NCBI GenBank assembly: GCA_013288985.1
Contig: JABDAT010000003.1
Coordinates: 4,183-68,182, forward strand
DNA: 64,000 nt
Direction of reading: 5' to 3'
Source: Alphaproteobacteria bacterium
Lineage (GTDB): Bacteria > Pseudomonadota > Alphaproteobacteria > Rickettsiales > JABCZZ01
Shown here: positions 2,718-47,809 of the stretch, one piece after another
Numbering within the stretch: position 1 is the first letter of the stretch
Layout of the letters: every line of letters begins with the position of its first letter
The notes under the pieces: model-generated
Told to the model about the DNA's origin: nothing
The model's database searches: none
Seen by the model: only the letters and a program-made list of their open reading frames with translations
Position numbers and translations under genes: made by a program

Positions 2718-3790
2718 GACATTTGCATACTCTAATAGGCATAGGATTATTGCTGCTGTTTTCTGCCTGCGGTGGCGGAACGGCGGAAAAACCGCCTTAT
2801 GAAGGCATCAAGCTTGGCAAGCCCTATGAGGTATATGGGCGCTGGTATAAGCCACATTACGAAGCGGATTATGACGAAATCGGCAAAGCCTCCTGGTATG
2901 GCCCGGGCTTCCATGGCGGCAAGACTGCCAGCGGCGAGCAGTTTGACCAGAATGCTCTGACGGCGGCCCATAAAACGTTGCCGATGCCTTCGATTGTGCG
3001 CGTCACCAATCTGGATAATGGCAAAAGCGTGCTCATTAAAATTAATGATCGCGGACCCTTTGCCCGCGACCGTATTCTTGATTTATCACGCGCGGCCGCT
3101 GCAAAGCTTGGGGTGATCCGCACAGGCACCGCCAAAGTACGCGTGCAATTCCTTGACAAGGAAACGCGCGACTATGTGCAGAACCTGCAAAAGGGCAAGC
3201 AATATGCCATGCAGTCGCTCAAAAAAGTTGATCCTGATGAGGCTGCCTTAAGGGAAGAGGCGCGTCAGGAACAAATCCAGCAGGCTTCTAAAGCGGCGGC
3301 TGCTTCGGACGGGCAGGCAATACCGGCCGAAGGTGTGGTGGAAAACGGTGCTGTTGTCGATCCGGTAACGCAAGCCGTTGTCAACAAACCCGAAGCACAA
3401 GCTCAACTGCCCCGGTCCAAAAAGATGCAGAGGGAAGAAATACAGAAGGAAGAACCGGCGGATCCTTTTTCAGTGGTGGATGCAAATGGTGATTCTGCCA
3501 ATCTTCAACAGGAAAAAGCGATACCGGTTGCGGCGACCACCGCTGCAATGCCTGCAAAAACGGGTGGCTTCTTTGTGCAAGCGGCTACCTTTAAGGCAGA
3601 AGAGAACGCACAAAGATTGTGCCATAAGCTTAATGGGCTGGGCGCAACGCAGGTAATAGAGATTACCATGAACGAAAGAAAATTATACCGCGTGGTGCTG
3701 GGCCCTTACGTCGAGCAGGAAGATGCAAGAAAACAGTTGAGTAAACTTGCAGCGCTCGGTATTTCTAACGCAACCATTTTCCGCAACTGA
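2714..3790 (+). CDS. rlpA: septal ring lytic transglycosylase RlpA with C-terminal SPOR domain (lipoprotein)
   Basis: ATG at 2714 overlaps the mltB stop (ATGA). Lipobox LLFSAC. DPBB block ASWYGPGFHGGKTASGE...INDRGPF. SPOR-like C-terminus FFVQAATF...YRVVLGPY. Confidence 0.85.
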   Translation: MRHLHTLIGIGLLLLFSACGGGTAEKPPYEGIKLGKPYEVYGRWYKPHYEADYDEIGKASWYGPGFHGGKTASGEQFDQNALTAAHKTLPMPSIVRVTNLDNGKSVLIKINDRGPFARDRILDLSRAAAAKLGVIRTGTAKVRVQFLDKETRDYVQNLQKGKQYAMQSLKKVDPDEAALREEARQEQIQQASKAAAASDGQAIPAEGVVENGAVVDPVTQAVVNKPEAQAQLPRSKKMQREEIQKEEPADPFSVVDANGDSANLQQEKAIPVAATTAAMPAKTGGFFVQAATFKAEENAQRLCHKLNGLGATQVIEITMNERKLYRVVLGPYVEQEDARKQLSKLAALGISNATIFRN

Positions 3791-3800
3791 TAAGTATCCC

Positions 3801-4940
3801 ATGCAAAACACATCTTCACGCTTTAAAATCATGCTCTGCGCCTTGGGCGGCTTGTTATTAGCCGCGCCTGCCATTGCTATCGAAACAGCTGCCAAGCAGG
3901 CCATCGTTATGGATGATATGACCAATACGGTCTTATTTGAGAAATCCGCCGACGAAAAAATGCACCCCTCATCCATGAGTAAGCTCATGACGGTGTATAT
4001 TGCTTTCAAACATTTAAAAGACGGCAGCCTTAAGCTTACGGATGAATTGCCGGTGAGCGAAAAGGCCTGGCGCACGCAGGGCTCCAAAACCTTTGTCGAG
4101 ATTGGCGGGCGCATAGCGGTCGATGATTTGCTGAAGGGGATTATTATTCAATCGGGCAATGATGCCTGCGTGGTGATAGCAGAAAATCTGGCGGGCAGCG
4201 AAGACGCCTTTGCCGAGCAAATGAACGATATGGCGCGCCAGCTTGGCATGAATAACACGCATTTCAGCAATGCCACCGGCCTGCCCAATGATACGCATTT
4301 GATGAGTGCGCATGATCTGGCGATATTGGCGCATCATATTATTCATGATTTCCCTGAATATTATCATTACTTCTCGGAGAAAGAATTCGTCCATCACGGT
4401 ATCAAGCAGGACAACCGCAATTTGCTTTTATATAAGGATATCGGCGTAGACGGGCTTAAAACCGGTCATACAGATGCTGGTGGATTTGGTATGGTGGTTT
4501 CTTCCAAAGATAAAAGCGGGCGGCGTATAATTGTAGTGGTTAACGGTCTTGGCAGTGAAAAAGAACGCGCCGAAGAAGCCGAGCGCCTGCTTGATTATGG
4601 ATTCAGGGATTTTGAGAATGTAACGCTGCTCCATAAGGGCGATGTGGTGGATAAAGCCGATGTTTGGTTTGGCGCGCAGCCCAAAGTAGGCCTTACGGTT
4701 GCCGATGATCTGGTGTTGACGCTGCCAAAAACGGCACGGGATAAGATGAAATTCACCTTATCCTATGAAGGACCCGTTCCTGCTCCGGTAAAGGAAGGCA
4801 CACATATCGCCGATTTAACGATTGAATCTGTGGATGCGCCTGCCCAAACCATACCGCTGGTTGCTGCTGAAACGGTGGACGAAGTGCATGGCTTCGCACG
4901 CATCGAAAGAGCCCTGAAACATTATATCCTAGGGCAATGA
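3801..4940 (+). CDS. D-alanyl-D-alanine carboxypeptidase (PBP5/6 class)
   Basis: Signal peptide. SxxK (SMSK), SxN (SGND) and KTG (LKTGHT) motifs are present in the right order. Confidence 0.85.
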   Translation: MQNTSSRFKIMLCALGGLLLAAPAIAIETAAKQAIVMDDMTNTVLFEKSADEKMHPSSMSKLMTVYIAFKHLKDGSLKLTDELPVSEKAWRTQGSKTFVEIGGRIAVDDLLKGIIIQSGNDACVVIAENLAGSEDAFAEQMNDMARQLGMNNTHFSNATGLPNDTHLMSAHDLAILAHHIIHDFPEYYHYFSEKEFVHHGIKQDNRNLLLYKDIGVDGLKTGHTDAGGFGMVVSSKDKSGRRIIVVVNGLGSEKERAEEAERLLDYGFRDFENVTLLHKGDVVDKADVWFGAQPKVGLTVADDLVLTLPKTARDKMKFTLSYEGPVPAPVKEGTHIADLTIESVDAPAQTIPLVAAETVDEVHGFARIERALKHYILGQ

Positions 4941-7279: not shown

Positions 7280-8830
7280 ATGACCCAGAATTTTTACATC
7301 ACGACCCCCATTTATTACGTCAATGATCGCCCGCATATTGGTCATGCCTATACTTCGGTTGCGTGCGATGTATTGGCACGGTTCATGCGGCTTTCAGGAC
7401 GGAATGTAAAATTCCTGACCGGCACGGACGAGCATGGCCAGAAGGTGGAAAAATCAGCGGCCCAGGCAGGCACTGCGCCTAAGGCGTTTGTCGATGAAGT
7501 GTCGCAGCATTTCCGTGACTTGACCAAAACAATGAACATCAGCAATGATGATTTTATCCGCACCACCGAACCCCGCCACATCAAAAGCGCGCAAGGCTTA
7601 TGGCAGAGAATGCAGGAAAATGGTTTCATCATACTTGGCAGTTATGCGGGCTGGTATGCAGTGCGCGACGAAGCGTTTTACGGCGAGGCCGAACTGGTAG
7701 ACGGCAAAGCGCCAACAGGCGCGGATGTGGAATGGGTGGAAGAGCCCAGCTATTTTTTCAAGCTTTCCGCTTTTGGCGACAAGCTGCTCGCATTTTATGA
7801 GGCACACCCTGATTTTATCATGCCCGCAAGCCGCCGTAATGAAGTTATCAGTTTTGTCAAAGGCGGCCTGAAGGATCTCTCGATTTCGCGCACGACGTTT
7901 AAATGGGGTATTCCCGTACCGGGCGATGAGAAACATATCATGTATGTTTGGCTGGATGCGTTGGCTAATTACCTCTCAGCAGTTGGGTATCCTGATACGG
8001 ATGCTGCCGGATACAAGAAATTCTGGCCTGCGAATATCCATATGGTGGGCAAAGATATATTGCGGTTTCATGCGGTGTATTGGCCCGCGTTTTTAATGGC
8101 TGCGGATTTGCCATTGCCAGAGCGCGTATTCGCGCATGGCTGGTGGACGATTGAGGGAGAGAAAGTATCTAAATCACTCGGCAATGCAATACCGGCTGGC
8201 GAATTGGTGGAGAAATTTGGTCTCGACCAGACACGATATTTCCTTATGCGGGAAGTGCCATTTGGCAATGACGGTAATTTCTCGCGCGAACGCATGGGCA
8301 TTGTCATTAACTCCGAGCTTGCCAATAATGTGGGTAATCTCGTGCAGCGCACGCTCAGCATGATTCACAAAAATTGCGGGGGCATTGTGCCCGACTCGCA
8401 GGGAGTCGCTAAGGACGAGCTTGATTTGGCATTCCTGCAGAAAGTACAGGTGACGGATAAAGCAACGCCGGAGCATATAGTCACGCGTTATACGGATTGT
8501 AAATTTAACGAGATACTTGCCGACATCATGGCGATTGCCAGTGAAGCAAACATGTATATCGATACTAAAGCGCCATGGAAGCAGAAGAAAATCGACGAGA
8601 AACTGATGCAGGCGACGCTTTATCATCTGGTGGAAGCAATACGCTGCATTGCCATTATGCTTCAGCCATTTATTCCTGACAGCTCATCAAAAATCTTAAC
8701 CATGCTCGGCTATGGTGAAAGCCAAATAAAGGCCGGGGTTTCTTTTAACGAGTTAACGCCTGAATTTGCCATTAAACCTGGTACGGTTATTTCCGAGCCG
8801 CAACCCCTGTTTCCCAGAATCGAATCCTGA
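7280..8830 (+). CDS. metG: methionine--tRNA ligase
   Basis: Class I HIGH region (PHIGHAY) and KMSKS-type loop (KVSKSLGN). I start at the ATG at 7280 (MTQNFYITTPIYYVN). Confidence 0.92.
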   Translation: MTQNFYITTPIYYVNDRPHIGHAYTSVACDVLARFMRLSGRNVKFLTGTDEHGQKVEKSAAQAGTAPKAFVDEVSQHFRDLTKTMNISNDDFIRTTEPRHIKSAQGLWQRMQENGFIILGSYAGWYAVRDEAFYGEAELVDGKAPTGADVEWVEEPSYFFKLSAFGDKLLAFYEAHPDFIMPASRRNEVISFVKGGLKDLSISRTTFKWGIPVPGDEKHIMYVWLDALANYLSAVGYPDTDAAGYKKFWPANIHMVGKDILRFHAVYWPAFLMAADLPLPERVFAHGWWTIEGEKVSKSLGNAIPAGELVEKFGLDQTRYFLMREVPFGNDGNFSRERMGIVINSELANNVGNLVQRTLSMIHKNCGGIVPDSQGVAKDELDLAFLQKVQVTDKATPEHIVTRYTDCKFNEILADIMAIASEANMYIDTKAPWKQKKIDEKLMQATLYHLVEAIRCIAIMLQPFIPDSSSKILTMLGYGESQIKAGVSFNELTPEFAIKPGTVISEPQPLFPRIES

Positions 8831-9432
8831 TGCTTGGAAAAGATGCTTTTGGCTACCTGTCGTTAGTATTTACAGTATTGTCTTATTCGCCTTATGTCTG
8901 GTCGATGCTGCGGGGGAAGACATGCCCCCATATCTTTTCTTGGATTATCTGGGCGCTGGTATCGGCTATTGTTTCCATTGCGCAATTCATAGCGTATGCC
9001 GGGCCGGGGGCATGGGCGCCGGGCTTGACTGCCGCATTCTCGCTGGGCGTCATTTTTTTATCGTTCTCGCAGAAGGCCGACTGGAGCATTACGCGCAGCG
9101 ATTGGGTTATGTTTATCGGCGGGCTTAGCATTATTCCTTTATGGTATATTACTTCCAGTCCGCTGGTGGCGGCAATTCTGGCGACTTTAATTGATGCAAT
9201 CGCCTATTATCCGACCTTCCGGAAATTCTACCATAAGCCCCATGAAGAAATGATTTTCATGTATGTTATTGCCAATATGAAACATGTCGCTTCCATTTTT
9301 GCGATCGTCGAATATTCTGTAACGACGCTTGTTTTTCCGGTTTGTATTTTTGCCATGAATATTTCATTGATAGCGATGCTGGCTTATAGAAGGCGCGTTA
9401 TAGCGCAGGAAGTGCCCCATGTTTCTGGTTGA
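8830..9432 (+). CDS. polytopic inner-membrane protein, unknown family
   Basis: About six hydrophobic segments. The ATG overlaps the metG TGA, and the 3' end overlaps the tatD start by 14 nt. No motif recognised. Confidence 0.55.
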   Translation: MLGKDAFGYLSLVFTVLSYSPYVWSMLRGKTCPHIFSWIIWALVSAIVSIAQFIAYAGPGAWAPGLTAAFSLGVIFLSFSQKADWSITRSDWVMFIGGLSIIPLWYITSSPLVAAILATLIDAIAYYPTFRKFYHKPHEEMIFMYVIANMKHVASIFAIVEYSVTTLVFPVCIFAMNISLIAMLAYRRRVIAQEVPHVSG

Positions 9433-10995: not shown

Positions 10996-12105
10996 ATGCA
11001 GAATTTTTCATTCACGCTCAAAAATCAATGCGGGCTTGCGCGCACCGGGCTTATCACTACCGCGCATGGAGACATAAGAACGCCTGCGTTCATGCCGGTG
11101 GGAACGGCAGGGACGGTGAAAGGCATGCTGCCGGAGTCGGTGAAGGCGACAGGGGCGGATATATTACTCGGTAATACCTATCACCTGATGCTTCGCCCTA
11201 CGGCCGAAGTGGTGGCGAAGCTTGGCGGATTGCACAAGTTTATGAACTGGGATGGACCGATTCTGACGGATTCCGGCGGGTTTCAGGTGATGTCGCTTTC
11301 CAAGCTGCGCAAGATTACGGAACAAGGCGTAACGTTTCAGTCGCATCTTGACGGCAATAGTTATGAACTGACGCCGGAGCGCGCGATGGAGATTCAGCAT
11401 CTGCTGGGCAGCGACATCACCATGGTGCTTGACGAATGCACGCCTTACCCGGCAACGGAAGCACAGGCGGCAACGTCCATGCAGCTTTCCATGCGCTGGG
11501 CGGAGCGCTCCAAGGCAGCATTTAAAGAACGCGCTGGGTATGGCTTGTTTGGCATCGTGCAGGGAGGAATGCATCAGCATTTGCGCGAAGAATCAGCAAA
11601 GGCATTGCAGGCGATAGGCTTTGACGGTTACGCGGTTGGCGGGCTGGCGGTGGGCGAGGGCCAGGACATCATGTTTGAAGTGCTGGATTATACTGTGCCC
11701 GCACTGCCTGAAAACAAGCCGCGCTACCTGATGGGTGTTGGCAAACCCAGTGATATTGTGGGTGCGGTGTTGCGCGGTATTGATATGTTCGACTGTGTTA
11801 TTCCCACGCGTTCAGGGCGTTTTGGCCGAGCCTATGTTGCTGAAGGCGAGCTCAATATTAAAAACGCCTGCCATGCAGAGGATGCATCGCCTATTGAAAA
11901 TAACTGTACATGCAGGTGCTGTGCGCATTACAGCCGCGCTTACCTCCATCATTTATTCAAAGCTGAGGAAATGTTGGGGCCGATTTTACTCACTTGGCAT
12001 AATTTACAATATTATCAGTCTCTTATGAGCGGAATACGTGCTGCCATAGATGCGGGGAAACTCCAGGAATTTGCCGCTGATTTTCTGGAAAGACAGAAAG
12101 ACTAA
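10996..12105 (+). CDS. tgt: queuine tRNA-ribosyltransferase (tRNA-guanine transglycosylase)
   Basis: Blocks [27 protein letters not shown] and LMGVGKP, plus a C-terminal Zn motif CxCxxC...H. Confidence 0.92.
11842..12105. repeat. direct repeat copy 1 (last 88 codons of tgt)
   Basis: Hand alignment with 13186-13449 gives equal length, no indels and about 21 mismatches by my count. Confidence 0.9.
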
Positions 12106-12168
12106 GCCATTAAGAAGAAATTAATAATAATCACATAATATAGACGCTTATCTTAGAGGAGATAAGGT

Positions 12169-13167
12169 ATGAGTGTAAATATACAGCAATATGCCGAACT
12201 AAGACATGCTCTGAGCAGTGAACAGCCGCGCCAATACACGGAAGGCGAGCTTCGCCTTTTGATTGATGGAATATTCGCAGAAGGGGCAGAGATAAGCGCT
12301 TTTTTAGGAGATGATGAACGAAAAAAAACAGTCGAAAATACCCCTTTTTATCAGGATAGATCCTTTTACGATAAATCATTGGCTGCCGCCTCTAGTTTCG
12401 AAGGCAAAACGTCAGCCGGGAAAATGTTTGAGAGTCTGCTGCTGCGGCAGGGAATAGGAAAATATCGCCGCTCTGGTAATGTAAAAGAAGATTTGGCGAA
12501 CCCTTTTAGAGGTACGGCTCGAAATGATAGGGGTGGATATATTAATGTACCTACAAACTTTGCTACAGTACAGGGGCATTTGAAGGTGGCAATCCATCAA
12601 ATGGCAGGCATTATAGAGAGAAAACATAATGAATTACCCCTTACCCCGCGCAGCAGTGAAGCCATCGAATCTGCCTATGCAAATAGGTTATGTTTAGATG
12701 GCCCTATTCGTTCAGCATGTGCAGAGCTTGATGATGGTGTGCTTTACCAAAATATTATCTATCAGGATACGTTAAAGAGAGTTGAGCAACTCGCTAAGGG
12801 GGAGGATGTAACTAAAACTCGGTATGTGGAGGCATCTGCTAACGTTAATTACACGCCCAACCGAGATTTAGAAGCGCTTTCGGCAATGTCAGATGTTATG
12901 AGTGGGCAAGAAGTCTTCAAACAGACAAAAAATATTCGCTACTCTGACCGGCCATCTACACTTACCCCAGATGATTATACTAGGGCTGGTTCAATAAATC
13001 CGGAATACTTGATATATAGAAGTGTGGTTAATACAGAACGCAATAAAACGCGAGTTACTGCAAGTGAGATGGCTAATATTGAACAAAGTATTGAAAAAGG
13101 CAGCGGGAGTGCTGGTAACAGATTAGACAATAGGCGGGGTTCAGGTTCAGACAGGCAACTTCTATAG
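12169..13167 (+). CDS. orphan protein, cargo of the tgt-3' insert
   Basis: Good SD (GAGGAG) 8 nt upstream of the ATG. The ORF is visibly AT-rich relative to tgt and recG, has no recognisable domain, and ends in a Gly/Ser/Arg-rich tail. Confidence 0.55.
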   Translation: MSVNIQQYAELRHALSSEQPRQYTEGELRLLIDGIFAEGAEISAFLGDDERKKTVENTPFYQDRSFYDKSLAAASSFEGKTSAGKMFESLLLRQGIGKYRRSGNVKEDLANPFRGTARNDRGGYINVPTNFATVQGHLKVAIHQMAGIIERKHNELPLTPRSSEAIESAYANRLCLDGPIRSACAELDDGVLYQNIIYQDTLKRVEQLAKGEDVTKTRYVEASANVNYTPNRDLEALSAMSDVMSGQEVFKQTKNIRYSDRPSTLTPDDYTRAGSINPEYLIYRSVVNTERNKTRVTASEMANIEQSIEKGSGSAGNRLDNRRGSGSDRQLL

Positions 13168-13185
13168 TTCTGTCCATAATTTACG

Positions 13186-13449
13186 GAAGGCGAGCTCAAT
13201 ATTAAAAACGCCTGCCATGCAGAGGGTGCATCGCCCGTGGATAAAGACTGCACATGCAAGTGCTGTGCGCATTACAGCCGCGCCTATCTGCATCATTTAT
13301 TCAAAGCTGAGGAAATATTGGGGGCAATTTTACTCACTTGGCATAATTTACATTATTATCAGTCTCTTATGAGCGGAATACGTGCTGCCATAGATGCGGG
13401 GAAACTCCAGGAATTTGCCGCTGATTTTCTGGGTAAACAGAAAAACTGA
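13186..13449 (+). pseudogene. displaced 3' fragment of tgt (direct repeat copy 2)
   Basis: Encodes [37 protein letters not shown]...FLGKQKN, homologous to the tgt C-terminus. The 5' three quarters of the gene are missing. An in-frame TAA lies at 13177-13179. Confidence 0.85.
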
Positions 13450-13534
13450 GTTTTGTTTACCAAATTTTAATAAAGTTCCGCTTTACTGCCAAACCCGCCA
13501 CCCAAGAGCGGTACTACAATTAACAGGAGAGATT

Positions 13535-13675
13535 ATGCAAATTATAAGCGACAAGCTGGATAATATTCCGGTGCGCGAAATCGTTACCTACCGCTACGAC
13601 GATATGATGGTTTATTTAAGTGCGACGGCGTTTTTTGTCATGGGTGTTATATTTATGGTGATTCTGTCGTTGTAA
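13535..13675 (+). CDS. small single-pass membrane protein (46 aa), hypothetical
   Basis: AGGAGA lies 5 nt upstream of the ATG at 13535. C-terminal hydrophobic helix ATAFFVMGVIFMVILSL. No family recognised. Confidence 0.35.
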   Translation: MQIISDKLDNIPVREIVTYRYDDMMVYLSATAFFVMGVIFMVILSL

Positions 13676-13706: not shown

Positions 13707-15827
13707 ATGCGGCCAGACAAGCTGTTTAGTTTATTTTCCGATGTTACGCGGCTCAAAGGCGTAGGCCCTGGTGCAAAGAAAGCGCTGGCGCGACTTTTCC
13801 GCGGCGATGAGTCATTGCCTGTCACTGTGCGCGATATGGTGTTTCATTTGCCGGTGAGCGTCGTTGATCGCAGGAACAGCCCTTCGCTCGCCTCTGCCAG
13901 GGAAGGCGATATTGTAACACTGATTATCACAGTGGAAACGCACGAGCCACCAGCGCGCAAACGCGGCGCCAAGCTGCCTTATAAGGTTGTCTGCCATACA
14001 CCTGAGGGGTACCTTACACTGGTGTTTTTCCATGCCCGCCCGGATTATGTTCAGCAGCATCTGCCACTGGGCGCTAAGCGCGTAGTCAGCGGCAAGTTTG
14101 AACGTTACGGTTACGGCGCGCAGATTACCCATCCTGATATTATAGCGCCTGTAGAAGAGTTAAAAAAGATTCAGGCGTTGGAGCCGGTCTATCCTTTAAC
14201 GGGCGGGCTTACCAATCGGCACTTAAGCAAAATCATGGCATCAGCGTTGGCATTGTTGCCGGATTTAGCGGAGTGGATTGATCCGGCGTATCTCGCCCAG
14301 CAGCAATGGAAGAGCTGGAAAGTTTCATTGCTTGCAGCCCACCATCCTCAGGCGCTGGCGGACTTATCTTTTGCAAGCCCTGCGCGCATGCGGCTTGCTT
14401 ATGATGAGATTCTTGCCAACCAGCTGGCGCTGGCATTGGTGCGCGCGCGCGTGCGCAAGCGCGTAGCATCCCCCATTGGCGCTAATGATGGCTTGCGTAA
14501 CCGGGTGCTGGAGATATTGCCTTATGCACTCACGCAAGGGCAGCTAAAAGTTATTCAAGAGATTGATGAAGATATGGCAAGCGGCAATCGTATGCTGCGG
14601 CTGCTCCAGGGTGATGTCGGCAGTGGTAAAACCATCGTGGCGGTCATGGCCATGCTGCACGTCATTGCTGCGGGCAGGCAAGTGGCGCTGATGGTGCCGA
14701 CCGAACTTCTGGGCAAGCAGCATTTTGCCTTTATAGAAAGATTGGCCGCTCCTTTGGGCCTGAAGACTTTGCTGCTTTTGGGAGGTATGAAAGCTAAAGA
14801 ATATAACGATGCCCTGACAGGCATTGCCTCCGGCGACGTATCCATTGTAATCGGCACGCATGCCCTGTTTCAGGGCAAGGTGGTATTTAAGGATCTGGCG
14901 CTTGCCGTCATAGACGAACAGCACCGTTTTGGCGTGGTGCAGCGTCTGGCGCTGACTTCCAAAGCGCAGGATACGCATGTGCTGGTGATGACGGCCACGC
15001 CTATTCCGCGCACCCTCACCATGACGGCGTTTGGCGATATGGATTGCTCGGTGCTGGCGGAAAAACCGGCGGGCAGGCGTGAGATTGCCACTAAAGCGAT
15101 ACCGCTTTCGCGGGTGAATGATGTGCTGGAAGGCATTGCGCGCGCCACTGCCAAGGGCGATAAAGTCTACTGGATATGCCCGCTGGTGGAAGAAAGCGAC
15201 GACGAGAATCTTCCTAGCGATTTGGCGGCGGCGCAAGCGCGCTTCGTGGAATTCACCCATCGTTTCGGGCCGCGCGTGGGAATGGTGCACGGACGGTTGC
15301 CAGCCGAAGAGCGCGATAAAATTATGACCGGTTTTGCCGGGAATGCGTTTGATATCCTTGTGGCTACGACAGTGGTGGAAGTCGGAGTGGATGTGCCTGA
15401 CGCCACCATTATCGTTATTGAACATGCTGAGCGGTTTGGACTTGCTCAGTTACATCAGCTGCGCGGACGGGTAGGGCGCAGCGATAAACCTTCCAGCTGC
15501 ATCCTGCTTTATACGGACCGTTGCAGCGATATTGCCAAATCGCGCCTACGGGTGATACGCGAAACGAATGACGGGTTCCGCATTGCCGAGGAAGATTTAA
15601 AATTGCGCGGTGCGGGGGATATATTAGGCACGCGCCAGAGCGGCCTGCCGGATTTCCATTTTGCTGATTTATCCGAGCATTATGATTTGCTACGCACGGC
15701 GCGCGACGACGCCAAGCTGATCTTGCACAGGGATGCGGCACTTACATCGGTCCGCGGACAAGCATTAAAAACGCTTTTATATTTATTCGGCTATGATGAG
15801 AATGTAAGGTTCCTGGGAGCGGGCTAA
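13707..15827 (+). CDS. recG: ATP-dependent DNA helicase RecG
   Basis: Helicase motifs GDVGSGKT, DEQHRFG, MTATPIPRT and QLHQLRGRVGR, with an N-terminal wedge domain. Confidence 0.93.
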   Translation: MRPDKLFSLFSDVTRLKGVGPGAKKALARLFRGDESLPVTVRDMVFHLPVSVVDRRNSPSLASAREGDIVTLIITVETHEPPARKRGAKLPYKVVCHTPEGYLTLVFFHARPDYVQQHLPLGAKRVVSGKFERYGYGAQITHPDIIAPVEELKKIQALEPVYPLTGGLTNRHLSKIMASALALLPDLAEWIDPAYLAQQQWKSWKVSLLAAHHPQALADLSFASPARMRLAYDEILANQLALALVRARVRKRVASPIGANDGLRNRVLEILPYALTQGQLKVIQEIDEDMASGNRMLRLLQGDVGSGKTIVAVMAMLHVIAAGRQVALMVPTELLGKQHFAFIERLAAPLGLKTLLLLGGMKAKEYNDALTGIASGDVSIVIGTHALFQGKVVFKDLALAVIDEQHRFGVVQRLALTSKAQDTHVLVMTATPIPRTLTMTAFGDMDCSVLAEKPAGRREIATKAIPLSRVNDVLEGIARATAKGDKVYWICPLVEESDDENLPSDLAAAQARFVEFTHRFGPRVGMVHGRLPAEERDKIMTGFAGNAFDILVATTVVEVGVDVPDATIIVIEHAERFGLAQLHQLRGRVGRSDKPSSCILLYTDRCSDIAKSRLRVIRETNDGFRIAEEDLKLRGAGDILGTRQSGLPDFHFADLSEHYDLLRTARDDAKLILHRDAALTSVRGQALKTLLYLFGYDENVRFLGAG

Positions 15828-16857: not shown

Positions 16858-17379
16858 TTATTGACGATGCTCGTCGCGGCGGATCTGACGGCCTTTTTTA
16901 TTATCCTGGTGGCGGTCCTGGTGGATCTGGCGGTGATCCTGGCGGATATTGCGACGGTCCTGGCGATCCTGACGTTTGTCCTGGCGCATTTGGCGGCCGT
17001 CTCTGCGATCCTGGCTGTGGTCCTGGTGGATTTGTGAGCGATCCTGATTGATCTGGTGTTGTTCTGCGCGGGCACCGGCATAATTACCGCTGGCGCGATC
17101 CTGTCTTTCAATCTGGCGATCCTGGCTGATTTGTGAGCGATCCTGGTTTATCTGCTGATGATTTGCCTGAACCTGCTGGCGATCCTGATTGATCTGCTGA
17201 TGGTTTTGGTCAATCTGCTGGTGATCCTGAGAAATCTGGTGGTGATCCTCGTTTATCTGCTGATGATTATCATGGATCTGCTGCTGATCTTGCTGGATTT
17301 GACCGGCATCTTGTGCAAAGACCGGTGCCGCAAAACACACTGTGGTAAGCAGTGCGACGAGTGATAATGTTCTTTTCAT
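16858..17379 (-). CDS. secreted His/Gln/Asp/Arg-rich heptad-repeat protein
   Basis: I start at the ATG at 17379 (MKRTLSLVALLTTVCFAAPVFA, a signal peptide). The mature part is almost entirely H/R-Q-Q-I-N/S-Q-D heptads, followed by an R/D/Q-rich tail. Confidence 0.7.
   Translation of the reverse strand: MKRTLSLVALLTTVCFAAPVFAQDAGQIQQDQQQIHDNHQQINEDHHQISQDHQQIDQNHQQINQDRQQVQANHQQINQDRSQISQDRQIERQDRASGNYAGARAEQHQINQDRSQIHQDHSQDRRDGRQMRQDKRQDRQDRRNIRQDHRQIHQDRHQDNKKGRQIRRDEHRQ
17111..17301. repeat. about nine tandem 21-bp coding repeats
   Basis: Units resemble ctgctgRtgatcctgattgat read on the + strand. They are the DNA basis of the heptad repeats. Confidence 0.8.
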
Positions 17380-17760
17380 AAAAAACCCCTTGTTAAGTTG
17401 ATGTGCAGGCATCATGACCTTGCAGAAAAATAGTAGCATAAGCGATATTAAGGTAAGCTTCCTGCAATATTAATTTTTTGCAATGAAGAATCCAATTATT
17501 AACATATTGTTATTTATTTATAGTTAAAGCATGGGTTTTCGGATGTTTGCATACCCCTAAAAGGGATCTTTCCTATAATTTATAACAAAATGATGTTTCC
17601 AGCACAAAGAGGGGAGCTTTGCCTTTTCTTTTCATTGTGCTATAATGAATCTGGTAGTTATGCTCATTCTTTTTTCCTTGTCTTTATTCATAGCTTCTAT
17701 CAGAACAGCGCCACGCGCTGCATTTTCAGTTGTTCAAAAATAAAATAAAGGCTTTCGCAT

Positions 17761-18342
17761 ATGAAAATAATGATTTCCGGTAAGCATGTCGACGTTGGTG
17801 AATCCCTGCATGCCCATATAGAACGCCGTCTTGAAGACGGTGTGAATAAGTATTTAGAACGTGTTACCAGCATCAATGTAGTAATAAGCAAAGAAGCGCA
17901 TCGTTTTAAAGTCGATATTAATGGCAATATGGGAACTTCTTCCGGGATAATACTGAAGAGCAGCGCACAGGCGGATGATGTATATGCCTGTTTCGACGCT
18001 GCTGCAGATAAGATTGAAAAGCAACTGCGCCGTTATAAACGCCGCTTGACCAATCATCATAAACAAAGCCACGGCCAGGGGAATACCGTTTTGGTGAGCG
18101 CAAAGAAATATGTGCTCAAATCAGATAATGAAGCTGAAGCGCAGGATGAAGCGCCTGTCGTTATTGCCGAGAAGGCGACGGCGGTAGAAACGCTTACCGT
18201 CAGTGAAGCCGTCATGAAAATGGATCTGGCGGATTTGCCGGCGCTCATGTTCTTTAATTCGGCAAGCGGCCGGATAAATGTAGTGTACCGACGGGTGGAT
18301 GGCAATATTTCCTGGGTCGATCCTGAAGGCAAGGCAGCTTAA
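17761..18342 (+). CDS. hpf: ribosome hibernation promoting factor, long form
   Basis: The N-terminal block MKIMISGKHVDVGESLHAHIE...KQLRRYKRRL matches the S30AE/RaiA family. There is a C-terminal dimerisation extension. Confidence 0.88.
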   Translation: MKIMISGKHVDVGESLHAHIERRLEDGVNKYLERVTSINVVISKEAHRFKVDINGNMGTSSGIILKSSAQADDVYACFDAAADKIEKQLRRYKRRLTNHHKQSHGQGNTVLVSAKKYVLKSDNEAEAQDEAPVVIAEKATAVETLTVSEAVMKMDLADLPALMFFNSASGRINVVYRRVDGNISWVDPEGKAA

Positions 18343-25506: not shown

Positions 25507-27378
25507 ATGGAAGCAGGGAAATCAAGAATTTCTGCCGGTTCTCGAACTATTCTGGCTAATCTGGCAGCTGTGGTTGTTAGTGTGTTGTCTGTGGGGTTGT
25601 TTTTATTTTTCTGCCAATTAATTCGCAGCCCCTTGCTCGCCTATACCGGCGGAGCGTTGAGATGGCAGACGGATGCATTTTTTCATGGTGACTTTGCGCT
25701 TAATCGGGCGCCGATCGGAATCATGCATGATCTTGCATGGGCTAATGGGCAACTGTCGCAGGTGTGGGGCCTTGGAGTTCCGGCACTGAGAATGCCGTTT
25801 GAATTCTGCGCACGAATTTTGGGCTTGTCTGCGTTTCCTGATCGCTGGGTATTTGGGTTTTACATACTCCTGGTGCTTGGCCAGGGAGTTCTCTGGGCAA
25901 TGGGCTCGCGGGAAAGCACTACATCCCGGTTCGAGCGGTTCTATATCGTTTTCCTGATGGTATTTTCTGTGCCGCTCGTCCGGATTTGCCGGACGCGGTT
26001 TTTTGTATACGAAGAGGTGGTTGCATACACGATTCTGTACTCTACGGCGCTCTATTTTAGTCTTATCTGCTTTTGGGAAGCGCCTACGCGGAAAAGCTAT
26101 TGGCGGCTTTCGTTTTTAGCGGGATTGGCCGGGTTTCTTCGCCCCACTGCTTTGGCGTATGGCGGAGTAAGCCTTGTATTGGCCGCCATCAAGGGGAAGA
26201 AAGCGGGCTGGGGCGTTAAACCACTGATGGGTGGATTGGGTGCATGGCTTCTGGGATTTGCCATGCTTTTGTGGACCAATCAGATTCGGTTTGGCTCTTG
26301 GCTTGAATTCGGCCACCGGATTAATATCAGCCGGATTCCTGACTCGGCCTATGTAACGCGATTCGAGAATCCGATGCTGTCTGTTTCCTGGCTGCAGTCG
26401 CTGCATGAATTATTGTATGCATTATTTTTTCGCCCCCCTTTAAATGGAGCAGATTATTTCCGTCCGCATTTTTTTCCTGGGCAGGTGAATATATTGCGCT
26501 TCCGGGAGTTTTATTTTTCAGTCTTTGATGAGACGATGCTCATATGGATGCTTATTGCTGCTGTACTCGCATGCTTTCTTTTGGTTTTACGATCCAACAA
26601 AGCTGCTTCTTTGGAGGCAAAGCGCTTGACCATCACCTTTATATGGTCCCTGTGCAGCACGATATTACTGACGGTGTTTTACGTTCGCTATCCTGTCATT
26701 ACTTCGCGTTACTTTGTGGATTTTGCCCCTGCCATGGCGGGTTTTCTGGTAGTGGCCACAGGATTGATGGGCCGGGATTTATGGGGTGATCGGTGGGTGC
26801 GGCTGCGCAAAGGCGGACTGTTTTTATTAATTACAGCATGGTGGATAAGCCAGTGGGCAACGTCGGAATTTTCACCGAATGCGGAAAGTTTTGGCGCTTT
26901 TTCTAAGGAGCAGGCACTTCAATCCATTCAACGTCATGATCCGCGCCCTCTGAAAAACGAGTTAGTCCTGGGTGATGGAAGTTCAGTGGAAGGCGATAAA
27001 TTATTGGCAGAACGATCCTGGGATGCCGAAATCCTTCAGACGCTTGGCTGGAGCAGCCAGACGGGCGCCGTAGAGGACTGTGTTATGATTTTATTTCAGA
27101 ATCCGGGACGAATTATGATTGAGGTCCAGTCTTCAGGAGCTGCCTTGATTCAATCCGATCAACTCAAATCAATTCGGGCAAAAGTTGAAAATGAGTTGCT
27201 TGATGTGGAAAGCATAACACCATTGAAAGATCGATGGAGAATTCAATTCAAACCTCCTGTCCAGGCGGCACATCGCTTTGGAATTCAGACAGTCTATTTT
27301 GCATTCGCCAATGCAGAAATGATTCTGCGGCATCAGCAGATATTTAAGCTTATTCGCATTGTAAATCAGTCTGATTAA
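25507..27378 (+). CDS. large polytopic membrane protein with C-terminal soluble domain, GT-C-like (putative polyprenol-sugar-dependent glycosyltransferase)
   Basis: About 11 or more hydrophobic segments over roughly 450 aa, then a roughly 170-aa hydrophilic domain. It starts 4 nt after the GT2 gene. The family assignment is inferred from architecture and context only. Confidence 0.45.
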   Translation: MEAGKSRISAGSRTILANLAAVVVSVLSVGLFLFFCQLIRSPLLAYTGGALRWQTDAFFHGDFALNRAPIGIMHDLAWANGQLSQVWGLGVPALRMPFEFCARILGLSAFPDRWVFGFYILLVLGQGVLWAMGSRESTTSRFERFYIVFLMVFSVPLVRICRTRFFVYEEVVAYTILYSTALYFSLICFWEAPTRKSYWRLSFLAGLAGFLRPTALAYGGVSLVLAAIKGKKAGWGVKPLMGGLGAWLLGFAMLLWTNQIRFGSWLEFGHRINISRIPDSAYVTRFENPMLSVSWLQSLHELLYALFFRPPLNGADYFRPHFFPGQVNILRFREFYFSVFDETMLIWMLIAAVLACFLLVLRSNKAASLEAKRLTITFIWSLCSTILLTVFYVRYPVITSRYFVDFAPAMAGFLVVATGLMGRDLWGDRWVRLRKGGLFLLITAWWISQWATSEFSPNAESFGAFSKEQALQSIQRHDPRPLKNELVLGDGSSVEGDKLLAERSWDAEILQTLGWSSQTGAVEDCVMILFQNPGRIMIEVQSSGAALIQSDQLKSIRAKVENELLDVESITPLKDRWRIQFKPPVQAAHRFGIQTVYFAFANAEMILRHQQIFKLIRIVNQSD

Positions 27379-31110: not shown

Positions 31111-31719
31111 CTAACGCATTATTTCTCTGATGGCTTCGGGATTACGCAATTTATTTTCTTCACCTTCCTTAGGCAGGGTAGCAAGCTCCGTTTTGCAAAC
31201 GACATCTCCCAGCGTGGCTTTTTTTCCTTCGAAGAAGACTTTGCCTGCGCACAATGTATCGGTATAGAAGCGGACATTTGCCCCGGTGCCTGCATAATAG
31301 GAAATGCCGTCGCCCCATGCGGTTTGGCTGAAGGTCAGATCGGCTGATTTTTTATCATCGCTGAGTTTGAATTCCTGTACCTCGGCACTATAGGCATAGT
31401 CCTGCAGGGAATATAATATATTATCAATGAACGCAGCGAAGCCTGCTTTATCAAACTCTTCCACCATGGGTTTTGCACCTTGCTGCAAAATGGAAAAATA
31501 GCGCACTTCGAGGCGTATATGAATGGGATCAGCCAATAATTTTTTTAAGCCATCGCTTATTTTTGCGCGGTCTTTGGTTGCAATGGCGCGGCCAAAATCA
31601 TCAAGCGCATGCTGTGCGATGCGTTTATAAAGGGTGGGGGGATATGCAAAATAATAATAGCCCCCGGCAGCAAGCGCCAACATTGTAATCACAGCTATAA
31701 TTATGGATTTCACTGACAT
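31111..31719 (-). CDS. N-terminally membrane-anchored hypothetical protein
   Basis: One TM helix (IIIAVITMLALAAGGYYYF) followed by a roughly 170-aa soluble domain. Its stop lies 4 nt upstream of the deaminase-family gene. Confidence 0.55.
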   Translation of the reverse strand: MSVKSIIIAVITMLALAAGGYYYFAYPPTLYKRIAQHALDDFGRAIATKDRAKISDGLKKLLADPIHIRLEVRYFSILQQGAKPMVEEFDKAGFAAFIDNILYSLQDYAYSAEVQEFKLSDDKKSADLTFSQTAWGDGISYYAGTGANVRFYTDTLCAGKVFFEGKKATLGDVVCKTELATLPKEGEENKLRNPEAIREIMR

Positions 31720-42456: not shown

Positions 42457-44832
42457 TTAATGTACAGTGTATCCTTGCGGCACTGTTATATCCTGGGGTT
42501 GTTTCATTGCATCATGCTGTGCTGCCCAGCTTGGTTGGCGCGGCCTGGTGAGAATGGGGTCGGACGGTTTGCCCGAGGTCGGGCGGGGCACGGATTGTTC
42601 AAGCGATACAGGACCCTCCGCTCTTTTCATCATTTCATGATTTCCCCAGTTCGTGGGAACAGTGGGATTGCGGAGCTCATTATACGTAGGACGCTGGGCT
42701 TTAAGTTGTTCAGTGGTAAAAAGCTTCTTTTTCTCGATGCGGCTTTCCTGTTTATCGTTAAGTTCTTCCGGCACATCATTAAGCTGATGGGCTTCGTTTG
42801 AAGCGCGGGCGCCATAATCCCACATTTTTTGTTTTGCTTCTTCTTCGCGCACTGGATCGGTAAATGGTTCATGGCGGATGGTTCGAAATACCTCACTGCA
42901 GCCTGCTCTGAATTCACCCCAACTAAAATGCGCTGCACCAATCAAGCCGCGCCTGATGCCCATATCCATACGCGGAATATCCCAGAACTCAGACAATATG
43001 TCGGTTTTTAACATGAAATAGGGAGTGTATGCCGTTGCCGCATCGGCATAGGTATGGGAAAATCTTTTGAGCTTATCTAAACGCGGCGTGTCTGTAATGC
43101 CAAGTTTCTCATACATGGGCGCAAGAAAGCCATCATTCAGTTTCTTGCCGAACTGATAGCATTTTAGTCCGATTGGATTAATAAATTTGTCATGCCAGGG
43201 GGCTACTGCACTGTTTTTGTAATAATTGTTAGTTTCATTTGAAAAGGCAGATTCACGGCCCTCTTGAAAGGGATTTGCAATAGAATCAGGATTATTTTTT
43301 ATGGAACGCCAAATATTCCTGTATTCTGCTTTGGTAAGTTCTTCATCCCCTTTTTTGAAAAAGAATTCCTTTCCGCGACGTTCTTTTGATATATTAGGAC
43401 GTTCTGTTGATACCCTCGAACCTGGCTTTACCGCTTTGAATGTATATTTTTTACTATCTTCAGGAGAATTGTCGGGAGCATTTATGCCTGGATCTTCAGC
43501 TTCGCTTTCACGCGTCATCCTTCCCAGAACACCTTTTTCAGCATTGATTGCCAATCCCCTGGTTTTGCTTTGCGAGGTGCGTATCGCTGCAAATGTAAAA
43601 GACGCAGGGATCATATACATCATCGTTTTAATGGTGGTGCTCAACGCATATAAAACGCCATCACCTATCTTGTGCACTCCAGCTCTCAGTATATCGACCC
43701 AGCTCTTGGAAGGATCAAGCGCGGGCAATGCAATCTTGTGATCGCCGTTCTGCCATTGCAGCAGTTTTCTTTCTCCGGTTGTGTAGGCATCACGGAACAT
43801 TTTGGTGCCGACGTTATACCAGCTGAACCTGCTCATCAGATCGAGCATGCCTTCCGCATTGTAATTGCCAATGATGTGGCCATTGCCATCGATTTTATAA
43901 CTGCCGCCGTTAAGGCCTTTATCCGCGTCGTATTTAAATCCCGGGCTGAGCTTATCAAAAAAGTTACGCTGTTTGCGCATGAGGAACACATAAGGGATGG
44001 CTACCGCCATATCTTCACCCGCAGCGTACGTAACGCCTCTGAAAACATTTTTAAGCAAATCCTTGAGGGCTTCGGGGAAAACAATATGGCCATCCTTCAT
44101 CCATTTATCGCGTGCATTGGGATCAAGAAGGCCGATAAAATAGCGCATCATGTAGTCGAAAAAGCTCATAGTGGCAAAGTCGAATGTGACGGCCATGGCT
44201 TCATGCCCCAGGCTGCGTCCCATCACGGCTTGCGTTGTGCCATCGGCAAGTTTAATGACGTTTCCGTAATTGCGGGTGTCGCGGAACAGAGTGAATTTCT
44301 GTGCTCTTACCTCATCGCCCGTGACTGCCTTCACTACCTTCTGGATGCCTTTGCCGGCGGTATTATCGATGAACCGTGTAATATGCTGGAGAACGTTTTC
44401 AGGATCTTTCTGGAGATCGTAATTTCCCAGCTGTTTGCTGCCGTAGATATTGGCAAGAGAATAAAATGCGCAGCCTATGATGCCGCGCGATACACTGCGT
44501 ATGGCCAGCCTGCCTGTGTAGGACTCAGACCATTTGAGATGTTTCTGATGATCGGTATAGTGTACGCTGCCCCAGGCATTACGGAAATCAAGCGGGGTAG
44601 TGGTGGTAACACCAAGCTCTCTGAGCCAGCGTTTATCTTTATCGGCAAAATCAAGCGAGCCATTCACTTTGGAAGCGGGTGGTTTATCGATCGCATCGAT
44701 AAGGCTTTGCTGCACGCCCATATTATCTCCGTACGCGCCAAAACCCGCAGGCTTCGATACCTCCGTGGTGGTCTTGCTGTGCAGCTTCTTATCCAATGTT
44801 GCAGTTGCCACGATTACACTCATTCCAATCAC
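42457..44832 (-). CDS. large orphan protein (791 aa), no recognisable domain
   Basis: A long uninterrupted ORF on the same strand as, and 93 nt upstream of, dadA. It has several hydrophobic or amphipathic stretches and a K/E/R-rich middle and C-terminus. The start is uncertain: GTG at 44832, ATG at 44823, or the ATG at codon 38 preceded by GGAGA. Confidence 0.6.
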   Translation of the reverse strand: MIGMSVIVATATLDKKLHSKTTTEVSKPAGFGAYGDNMGVQQSLIDAIDKPPASKVNGSLDFADKDKRWLRELGVTTTTPLDFRNAWGSVHYTDHQKHLKWSESYTGRLAIRSVSRGIIGCAFYSLANIYGSKQLGNYDLQKDPENVLQHITRFIDNTAGKGIQKVVKAVTGDEVRAQKFTLFRDTRNYGNVIKLADGTTQAVMGRSLGHEAMAVTFDFATMSFFDYMMRYFIGLLDPNARDKWMKDGHIVFPEALKDLLKNVFRGVTYAAGEDMAVAIPYVFLMRKQRNFFDKLSPGFKYDADKGLNGGSYKIDGNGHIIGNYNAEGMLDLMSRFSWYNVGTKMFRDAYTTGERKLLQWQNGDHKIALPALDPSKSWVDILRAGVHKIGDGVLYALSTTIKTMMYMIPASFTFAAIRTSQSKTRGLAINAEKGVLGRMTRESEAEDPGINAPDNSPEDSKKYTFKAVKPGSRVSTERPNISKERRGKEFFFKKGDEELTKAEYRNIWRSIKNNPDSIANPFQEGRESAFSNETNNYYKNSAVAPWHDKFINPIGLKCYQFGKKLNDGFLAPMYEKLGITDTPRLDKLKRFSHTYADAATAYTPYFMLKTDILSEFWDIPRMDMGIRRGLIGAAHFSWGEFRAGCSEVFRTIRHEPFTDPVREEEAKQKMWDYGARASNEAHQLNDVPEELNDKQESRIEKKKLFTTEQLKAQRPTYNELRNPTVPTNWGNHEMMKRAEGPVSLEQSVPRPTSGKPSDPILTRPRQPSWAAQHDAMKQPQDITVPQGYTVH

Positions 44833-47774: not shown

Positions 47775-47809
47775 TCCTCTGATAATATCCTCATGAAATT
47801 ATCAGAGGA
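47775..47809 (+). promoter_or_regulatory. 12-bp perfect inverted repeat enclosing the start codon of the 299-aa ORF
   Basis: tcctctgataat (47775-47786) pairs with attatcagagga (47798-47809). The 11-nt loop atcctcATGaa contains the ATG at 47793. Confidence 0.5.

Follow-up and report, generated by a model that had tools for sequence, protein, structure and literature searches.

The 64-kb stretch of DNA analysed here, referred to as the window, comes from an uncultured alphaproteobacterium whose species is known from one genome, apparently obtained in a single sequencing run (SRR8422950). It carries the gene tgt, which encodes a tRNA-modification enzyme, followed by a second copy of the 3' end of the same gene in direct orientation, and the two copies of this end enclose 1,080 nucleotides (nt) that hold one open reading frame (ORF) of 332 codons, ORF332. 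The full-length tgt (10996..12105; all features lie on the plus strand unless stated otherwise) codes for 369 amino acids (aa), matches the Pfam family TGT with E = 9.8e-162 and is intact through the first copy of its end, copy A. The second copy, copy B, is an orphan followed by a small ORF of 46 aa (13535..13675) and by recG (13707..15827). The nearest sequenced relatives are metagenome-assembled genomes labelled Rickettsiales or Alphaproteobacteria, with a top tgt match of 84% aa identity. Compared with the closest relative, represented by the loci L082 and L083, tgt has 83.6% aa identity and the flanking genes a comparable 74-83%, and as a whole the gene appears native-like, on par with its neighbours. 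The public annotation of tgt (P0003, 337 aa) begins 32 codons after the ATG at 10996 (window 10996-11091), and the 369-aa form agrees with the homolog lengths of 369-373 aa.

A repeat search returned one family (11837-12106 and 13181-13450; offset 1344; 91% over 270 nt), the sole long repeat in that part of the window. Trimmed to 11842-12105 (copy A) and 13186-13449 (copy B), the copies are 264 nt each and 92.0% identical, with differences at 21 nt and 12 aa (75/87 aa identical) and neither insertions nor deletions. Identity extends from GAAGGCGAGCT to one base past the stop codon (TAAG vs TGAG). Both copies are open in the tgt frame, keep the CxCxxC motif and the downstream His (WHNL) and match Pfam TGT, copy B on its own with E = 6e-33, and their G+C content (GC) of 0.44-0.46 is like that of the corresponding region of the relative. 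The first-pass annotation of this DNA had described a direct duplication of 264 nt at these positions, with equal lengths, no indels, about 21 nt and a dozen aa differences, open frames and the zinc motif in both copies and an end at the stop codon; the coordinates proved exact, and the precise alignment bears out each of the other points.

Copy A comprises the last 87 codons and the stop (TAA) of tgt, contiguous with the gene, and keeps all near-invariant residues. Copy B, which we regard as the displaced native 3' end, stops with TGA as in L082 and has a terminator-like 11-bp hairpin across its stop, followed by a T-rich run (13432..13461; -11.9 kcal/mol; z = -2.4 and -1.9 in two runs); the equivalent position after copy A has no such hairpin. 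Copy B lies in the frame of ORF332 but behind the stops TAG (13165) and TAA (13177), and an intein in tgt was rejected as these two stops precede it.

The loci L082 and L083 show the gene order metG-tatD-lactamase_B-tgt-46-aa ORF-recG without the insert, with the small ORF and recG directly after tgt, so that the empty site looked for after the first-pass annotation exists in the closest relative. The flank 3' of copy B aligns to the region downstream of tgt in L082, whereas the flank 3' of copy A does not. The 46-aa ORF, a conserved native neighbour of tgt, is 57% identical to the ORF at the equivalent position in L082/L083, and recG follows in the same order in L082. Copy B thus has the ancestral neighbours on its right and copy A those on its left, and the inserted unit amounts to 1,344 nt. 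The C-terminal half of the 46-aa ORF between tgt and recG is hydrophobic, and the ORF has no family match.

Both junctions of the insert are present in the Logan contig L001 (run SRR8422950, k = 31), which equals window 12059-13215 base for base and spans the passage from copy A to the insert and from the insert to copy B. A second Logan contig begins at about 13403, where the differences specific to copy B resume, and the phasing across a 79-nt run identical in A and B rests on the deposited contig. An artefactual joining of two co-occurring strains with different tgt alleles could be thought of, as the source is apparently a single sequencing run and the species is known from one genome, but it is extremely improbable: the unique junctions (the A-specific 3' end to the sequence that follows it, and the end of the ORF332 segment to the start of copy B) recur in an independent assembly, and a mixture of strains yields no 1,080 nt of unique sequence between the two alleles. 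Another way to read the contigs is that the insert and one repeat exist wholly or partly as a circle of 1,344 nt, either an excised form or a tiny replicon, beside a chromosome with a single tgt, the contig being one of two resolutions of the assembly graph across the 79-nt run. The k = 31 contigs break where this predicts (12059-13215, then from about 13403), and short k-mers are unable to phase a stretch of 79 nt that is identical in both copies. Yet the deposited 69-kb contig shows the integrated arrangement, the 79 nt would be spanned by any read of more than about 100 nt, and a 1.3-kb circle without a recognisable replication protein is unlikely to persist; we consider such a circle very unlikely, and in either case the sample holds two diverged tgt ends.

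The insert between the repeats (12106..13185; 1,080 nt) has a GC of 0.42 and is absent from L082/L083. Its sole cargo is ORF332 (12169..13167), which is predicted to encode a soluble 37-kDa protein with an isoelectric point of 6.5 and is preceded at a spacing of 7 nt by an AGGAG Shine-Dalgarno sequence (12157-12161). The GC at third codon positions (GC3) is 0.35, against 0.51-0.62 in the neighbouring genes, and the three codon positions follow the coding-type order GC1 > GC2 > GC3 (0.52/0.42/0.35). Across the whole insert the frame of ORF332 contains 5 stops, none within the ORF, compared with 12-38 in the other frames. The lower G+C and the single orphan ORF with its Shine-Dalgarno sequence had been pointed out by the first-pass annotation and are confirmed by these values. 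A word-indexed search of 5.8 billion proteins and a full phmmer search of 1.84 billion representatives returned only ORF332 itself, and no significant match was obtained in Pfam, PHROGs, PADLOC, NCBIfam or PDB. Neither the ORF nor the insert had a match in phage or plasmid collections, and the ORF had none in 86 fetched loci or in the rest of the window. In total it stands without a relative among some 15 billion proteins, so that the suggested search for the 332-aa ORF beside a recombinase in relatives found no homolog to start from. Protein databases including metagenomes held no tgt above 84% identity and no relative of ORF332. An AlphaFold2 model predicted without an alignment reached a confidence (pLDDT) of 35.8 and gave no confident fold. 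Because of its low GC3, its coding-type GC pattern and the lack of a homolog in the resources searched, ORF332 is best described as a genuine foreign ORFan.

In the AT-rich leader of the insert (12106..12206), weak promoter-like hexamers at 12110-12139 precede the AGGAG and the first codons of ORF332. As copy A is without a terminator and these hexamers are only weak, ORF332 probably shares the transcript of tgt by read-through, with the native hairpin after copy B as its terminator, and is translated from its own Shine-Dalgarno sequence and ATG. The leader was compared with the native region downstream of tgt, where 844/1000 shuffles scored as well, and with the tgt 3' end or repeat, where 125/500 shuffles were as good; a decayed origin from either was rejected. 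As neither leader test was significant, we make no claim of similarity between the Shine-Dalgarno region and GCAGAGGAT of tgt, which had been aligned by eye. Other classes of inserted DNA were rejected as well: an insertion sequence or transposon, as there is no transposase, there are no terminal inverted repeats and the repeats are of 264 nt and 14 nt; a self-splicing intron or structured RNA, with no Rfam match; and an integron cassette, as neither an attC-type structure nor a match to an RNA family was found, the cassette end lacks a pair of inverted repeats and the window contains no IntI or other recombinase.

Inside ORF332 we found a chimeric patch of 45 nt derived from tgt (12207..12251), which is new here and had been missed by the first-pass annotation. 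It consists of two overlapping tgt-like parts, so that ORF332 carries tgt-derived sequence within its first 28 codons. The first part (12207-12235) resembles repeat positions +76 to +102, with 23/29 columns identical to copy B 13261-13287 when a 2-nt gap is included (1/1000 shuffles). The second part (12225-12251; GCCGCGCCAATAC-ACGGAAGGCGAGCT) resembles tgt -17 to +11 and spans the left edge of the repeat; compared with the tgt of L082 its identity is 23/26, and its score of 34 stands against 21.7 +/- 2.1 for shuffles (0/400). The two parts overlap on GCCGCGCC(A/T)AT, and the 11-mer GCCGCGCCTAT is present twice in tgt. The patch carries this GCCGCGCCTAT allele, which is that of copy B and the relative, and not the A allele. 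It encodes the ancestral R-A-Y-T...E-G-E-L motif, whose Thr is found in 103/119 homologs, where the resident gene has Val-Ala. No comparable tgt patch was found elsewhere.

The patch ends on a repeated core. The motif GAAGGCGAGCT occurs in three direct copies, at 11842, 12241 and 13186: the first at the left edge of copy A (11842..11852) has 11 of the 14 core bases, and the exact 14-mer ACGGAAGGCGAGCT is present both within ORF332 (12238..12251, in frame as T-E-G-E-L) and at the left edge of copy B (13183..13196). With at most 2 mismatches the core gives 4 hits in the window against 0.28 expected, and 0/100 shuffles reach 4. The cores bound a 399-nt segment (copy A, leader and patch) and a 945-nt segment F, measured core to core and equal to 315 codons, which consists of the body of ORF332 and an 18-nt tail (12252..13182) and lies within tgt-derived sequence with 14-nt direct repeats on both sides. 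A middle core with a tgt-like left arm is the appearance that would be expected of an attachment (att) type site. A tgt patch that ends on a third core copy implies that more than one recombination event took place at the locus, in a nested fashion. Together with the opening bases of segment F, core 2 forms a 10-bp hairpin (AAGGCGA-GCT-TCGCCTT; 12239..12261), and the 51-nt stretch that contains it (12225-12275) has a minimum free energy of -15.7 kcal/mol (z = -2.1; 8/200 shuffles). At the right end of the insert, CATAATTTAC (13175..13184) recurs unchanged inside the repeat (11998-12007 / 13342-13351) and is possibly junction filler, although such 10-mers are expected about once by chance.

Such snippets would also suit a single complex event of repair or replication in place, in which a break or stalled fork at a quasi-palindromic site in tgt was resolved by template switching or end joining, with the 3' end duplicated, foreign fragments captured and tgt snippets used as filler. 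The site lies within an imperfect palindrome, AGGCG...CGCCT, centred on AATATT; the tgt snippets at the junctions, namely the chimeric patch and possibly CATAATTTAC, stem from at most about 170 nt away; and a hairpin sits at the junction of core and segment F. Against this, we estimate that a random staggered break would let the repeat end at the stop in only about 3% of cases, even with selection for an intact tgt and an intergenic space of 86 nt, and an intact and expressible foreign gene of about 1 kb would be an atypical capture. The 8% divergence of the copies further implies that the event is old and its fine details blurred, and we regard an origin in place as unlikely.

The two copies have diverged unequally. 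Copy B carries D14G, M44I and P47A, at positions where homologs conserve D in 115/119, M in 119/119 and P in 91/119, and copy A keeps all three. With L082 as outgroup, 10 of the changes between A and B are B-derived (6 nonsynonymous) and 8 are A-derived (4 synonymous, 1 stop-to-stop and 3 nonsynonymous at variable sites), and 3 are unassignable; three adjacent synonymous changes in copy A (GCT TAC CTC) are derived relative to both copy B and L082. Counted by the Nei-Gojobori method, the copies differ by 13 nonsynonymous and 7 synonymous changes, with a synonymous divergence (dS) of 0.147, a nonsynonymous divergence (dN) of 0.065 and a ratio of the two (omega) of 0.44, compared with 0.27 for the repeat region against L082 and 0.09 for the remainder of tgt. 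The nt identity to L082 is 0.72 for copy A and 0.71 for copy B, and the copies are equally distant from every relative, so that neither can be called foreign; an assignment from nearest neighbours by gene segment and nt identity to L082 was tried and rejected for this lack of discrimination. Since the near-invariant D, M and P are changed in B and not in A, copy B appears to be drifting and copy A constrained, both from the host lineage. The first-pass annotation had taken the copies for two alleles that diverged under purifying selection in different lineages, which fits neither the dN/dS of 0.44 nor the changed near-invariant residues of B nor the equal closeness to the host lineage, and differs from icd/icdC of Escherichia coli, a pair with 12 nt but just 2 aa differences. 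Its proposal to see which copy groups with the host lineage could be carried out by gene segment and by nucleotide, though the two values do not discriminate. The differences are also clustered: the identical run of 79 nt (P = 0.008) falls where Tgt is most variable among homologs, which suggests partial gene conversion between the copies after the duplication. The first-pass annotation had held that mosaic gene-conversion products of one allele would speak against an element; partial conversion is suggested by the identical run.

Taken from its layout, the locus reads as a real, non-autonomous scar of integration or of 3'-end displacement. We give an even chance to the reading that window 11842-13185 (1,344 nt) is the non-autonomous remnant of DNA integrated at the 3' end of tgt by recombination at the short core (ACG)GAAGGCGAGCT. 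Copy A, with the last 87 codons of tgt, is probably the replacement end that came in at the start of this DNA, and one foreign gene, ORF332, would have come with it; tgt remains intact because the incoming DNA supplied copy A. The original 3' end, copy B, would have been pushed 1,344 nt downstream and would persist as an unexpressed relic joined to its native terminator, the 46-aa ORF and recG. The crossover may have been site-specific, as for e14 and phage 21 at icd, through a recombinase whose gene lies elsewhere or has been lost. At least two events would have been stacked at one core, as segment F is bounded by identical 14-nt cores and the 399-nt segment resembles a replacement-end unit, and copy B would later have drifted, with gene conversion evening out some of its differences from A. 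The remnant would probably comprise two units at this core, the displaced end having since decayed and undergone conversion. A unique order of events was not retained, as several histories fit: segment F first and then a rescue, the replacement-end unit first and then F, or a single circle with two cores.

The first-pass annotation had likewise proposed the scar of an integrative element, and the layout, the empty site, the native context of copy B, the foreign ORFan insert and the match to e14 at icd speak for that part of its claim, whereas neither copy is demonstrably foreign. Several observations weigh against integration. As the first-pass annotation had noted, recombinase and tRNA genes are missing: the insert and 40 other ORFs of the window gave no Pfam hit to an integrase, excisionase, transposase or other recombinase, and the window contains no tRNA or transfer-messenger RNA. 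None of 84 related tgt loci had a second tgt 3' fragment, and because the cargo is without a relative, no second copy, excised form or other host is demonstrable. A foreign origin of A is not demonstrated, as A and B do not differ in their closeness to the host lineage, and the dN/dS of 0.44 is unlike e14 with its mostly synonymous differences. The part of the patch that resembles +76 to +102 is not predicted by a simple att model, the continuation of ORF332 in frame across the middle core would be a coincidence if that core joins two separate units, two matching viral contigs hold full-length tgt and not att fragments, and the whole case comes from one genome.

The two viral contigs are the IMG/VR contigs L087 and L088, each with a full-length tgt of 381 aa (3131-4276 in each) about 240 nt from the end of an ORF on the opposite strand. 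The opposite-strand ORFs (427-466 aa and 464-468 aa) are taken by us to be putatively terminase- and portal-like, and the tgt slightly overlaps the start of an ORF which we presume to be QueF-like. These tgt genes are queuosine-pathway genes on a phage or prophage flank and not att fragments, and a viral attP that carries the tgt end was rejected, as both IMG/VR matches are full-length tgt beside phage structural genes.

The main rival to the integration of a unit at the core is a one-sided homologous and illegitimate recombination, which we hold to be possible, if on the unlikely side. In this case a donor closely related to the host, with ORF332 after its tgt stop, would have recombined by homologous pairing on the left and through a microhomology joint on the right, without a site-specific recombinase, and a right joint upstream of the end of the pairing would have produced the 264-nt duplication. 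The copies share one lineage, with 92% identity between them and 71-72% to the nearest relative; no recombinase was found in the window; a long left anchor is plausible for a tgt that is native-like throughout; the right joint has short identities of 3-14 nt (ACG and core, possibly the 10-nt filler); and a patchwork of tgt snippets at the junctions suits untidy illegitimate events. The same mechanism was proposed for the orphan 3' ends in type VI secretion system (T6SS) and rearrangement hotspot (Rhs) loci (PMC5361080). However, the reported frequency of such events lies orders of magnitude below that of plain homologous replacement (PMC5361080), and the latter would create no duplication. The displacement would only shift the origin of the arrangement with ORF332 right after the tgt stop to an unseen donor; a tgt-like patch that ends on the same core, 945 nt before the joint, is not among its predictions; and from a donor only some 8% diverged one would expect a leader similar to the native intergenic region, which the leader after copy A is not. 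Further, A and B encode the same Tgt C-terminus and not different functional modules.

The window holds further sequences of uncommon character. A 200-aa ORF (8830-9432, plus strand) lies exactly between the stop of metG and the start of tatD and has no Pfam or NCBIfam match; in L082 tatD comes directly after metG, which makes this ORF another single-gene insertion specific to the lineage; it lies 3 kb upstream of the one at tgt and has no flanking duplication. On the minus strand, a 193-aa protein (16858-17439) without a Pfam match is rich in Q, D and R with 21-nt repeats (QQINQDR-type heptads), and a 710-aa ORF (52428-54560), also without a Pfam match, contains at least 4 tandem repeats of 66 nt (22 codons) at 53311-53643 with 81-86% identity. 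An intergenic GC trough of 0.32 (17450-17750) is situated upstream of a ribosome hibernation factor gene (17761-18342). Four sizeable ORFs of 623, 202, 791 and 299 aa (25507-27378, 31111-31719, 42457-44832 and 47793-48692) have no Pfam domain at E <= 1e-5, and their neighbours are otherwise ordinary housekeeping genes.

Elements that target the 3' ends of genes and carry a spare end are a textbook phenomenon. If integration at the core is the correct reading, tgt would join the short list of protein-coding att sites used by elements with a spare gene end, and the element would be one reduced to 1.3 kb and a single gene whose att scars are still legible. For annotation, the lesson is that the orphan tgt fragment, copy B, is not to be called a gene, and ORF332 offers a clean example of an ORFan whose foreign origin is arguable from its context. 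With a single draft genome and a phenomenon that is well established in general, the wider impact is limited unless the site proves recurrent in further genomes of this lineage.

In the literature searched we found no precedent for tgt, or its product, serving as attachment or integration site, and among the closest known arrangements is that of e14 and phage 21 at icd. In E. coli K-12 we measured the repeat between the icd 3' end and icdC at 165 nt and 92.7% identity, without indels and ending exactly at the stop, and the gene-contiguous icd copy is annotated as part of the prophage. Both at icd and at tgt the direct repeat is the 3' end of the gene, the gene-contiguous copy would lie inside the element and the orphan just outside, the copies align without indels up to the stop, and the identities are close (92.7% and 92.0%). 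Unlike e14, which is 15.2 kb long and carries intE and xisE, the tgt repeats enclose 1.08 kb without a recombinase; the tgt copies differ at 21 nt and 12 aa with conserved residues changed in the orphan, where icd and icdC differ at 12 nt and 2 aa; and the tgt insert has a third tgt-like patch with the same core inside it. Of the features that define an e14-type case, the 3'-end repeat, the sharp crossover to the end of the coding sequence and the empty site are all present at tgt, whereas a recombinase gene in the window and an occurrence of the element elsewhere were not found.

The order of a full gene, a cargo gene and a start-less orphan 3' end in direct orientation is also known from Rhs, contact-dependent inhibition (CDI) and T6SS effector loci, where no dedicated recombinase is needed (PMC5361080). 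In those loci the two ends code for distinct toxin domains, accompanied by matching immunity genes, and the arrays recur across strains; at tgt, in contrast, both ends encode the same C-terminus of a tRNA-modification enzyme, and the arrangement was seen once.

Two further systems resemble the locus in its small size and stacked cores. Cis-mobilisable elements (CIME), known from ICESt1/CIME of Streptococcus thermophilus, are recombinase-less remnants that are bounded by att sites and accrete in tandem. The tgt insert likewise is short, is flanked by att-like repeats within a housekeeping gene's 3' end, lacks an integrase of its own and shows units stacked at one core, but no helper element or integrase is known for the host genome and the units are just 399 and 945 nt long. 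With integron cassettes it shares a single tightly packed ORF, a size of about 0.9-1.3 kb, units bounded by a short repeated core and a reliance on upstream signals for expression, and it differs from them in that the site is inside a protein-coding gene and the 264-nt coding repeat belongs to the unit. It is conceivable, though decidedly unlikely, that the tgt 3' end serves as a capture site at which tiny units without a recombinase stack in tandem at the 14-nt core, with an unseen integrase acting in trans, or host RecA acting on the 264-nt tgt homology, to mobilise them. The unit on the upstream side would then give a replacement end and would lend promoter, Shine-Dalgarno sequence and ATG to the next, with the reading frame continuing over the core, ORF332 would be a fusion product, and the whole would represent an integron-like or CIME-like system housed in a housekeeping gene.

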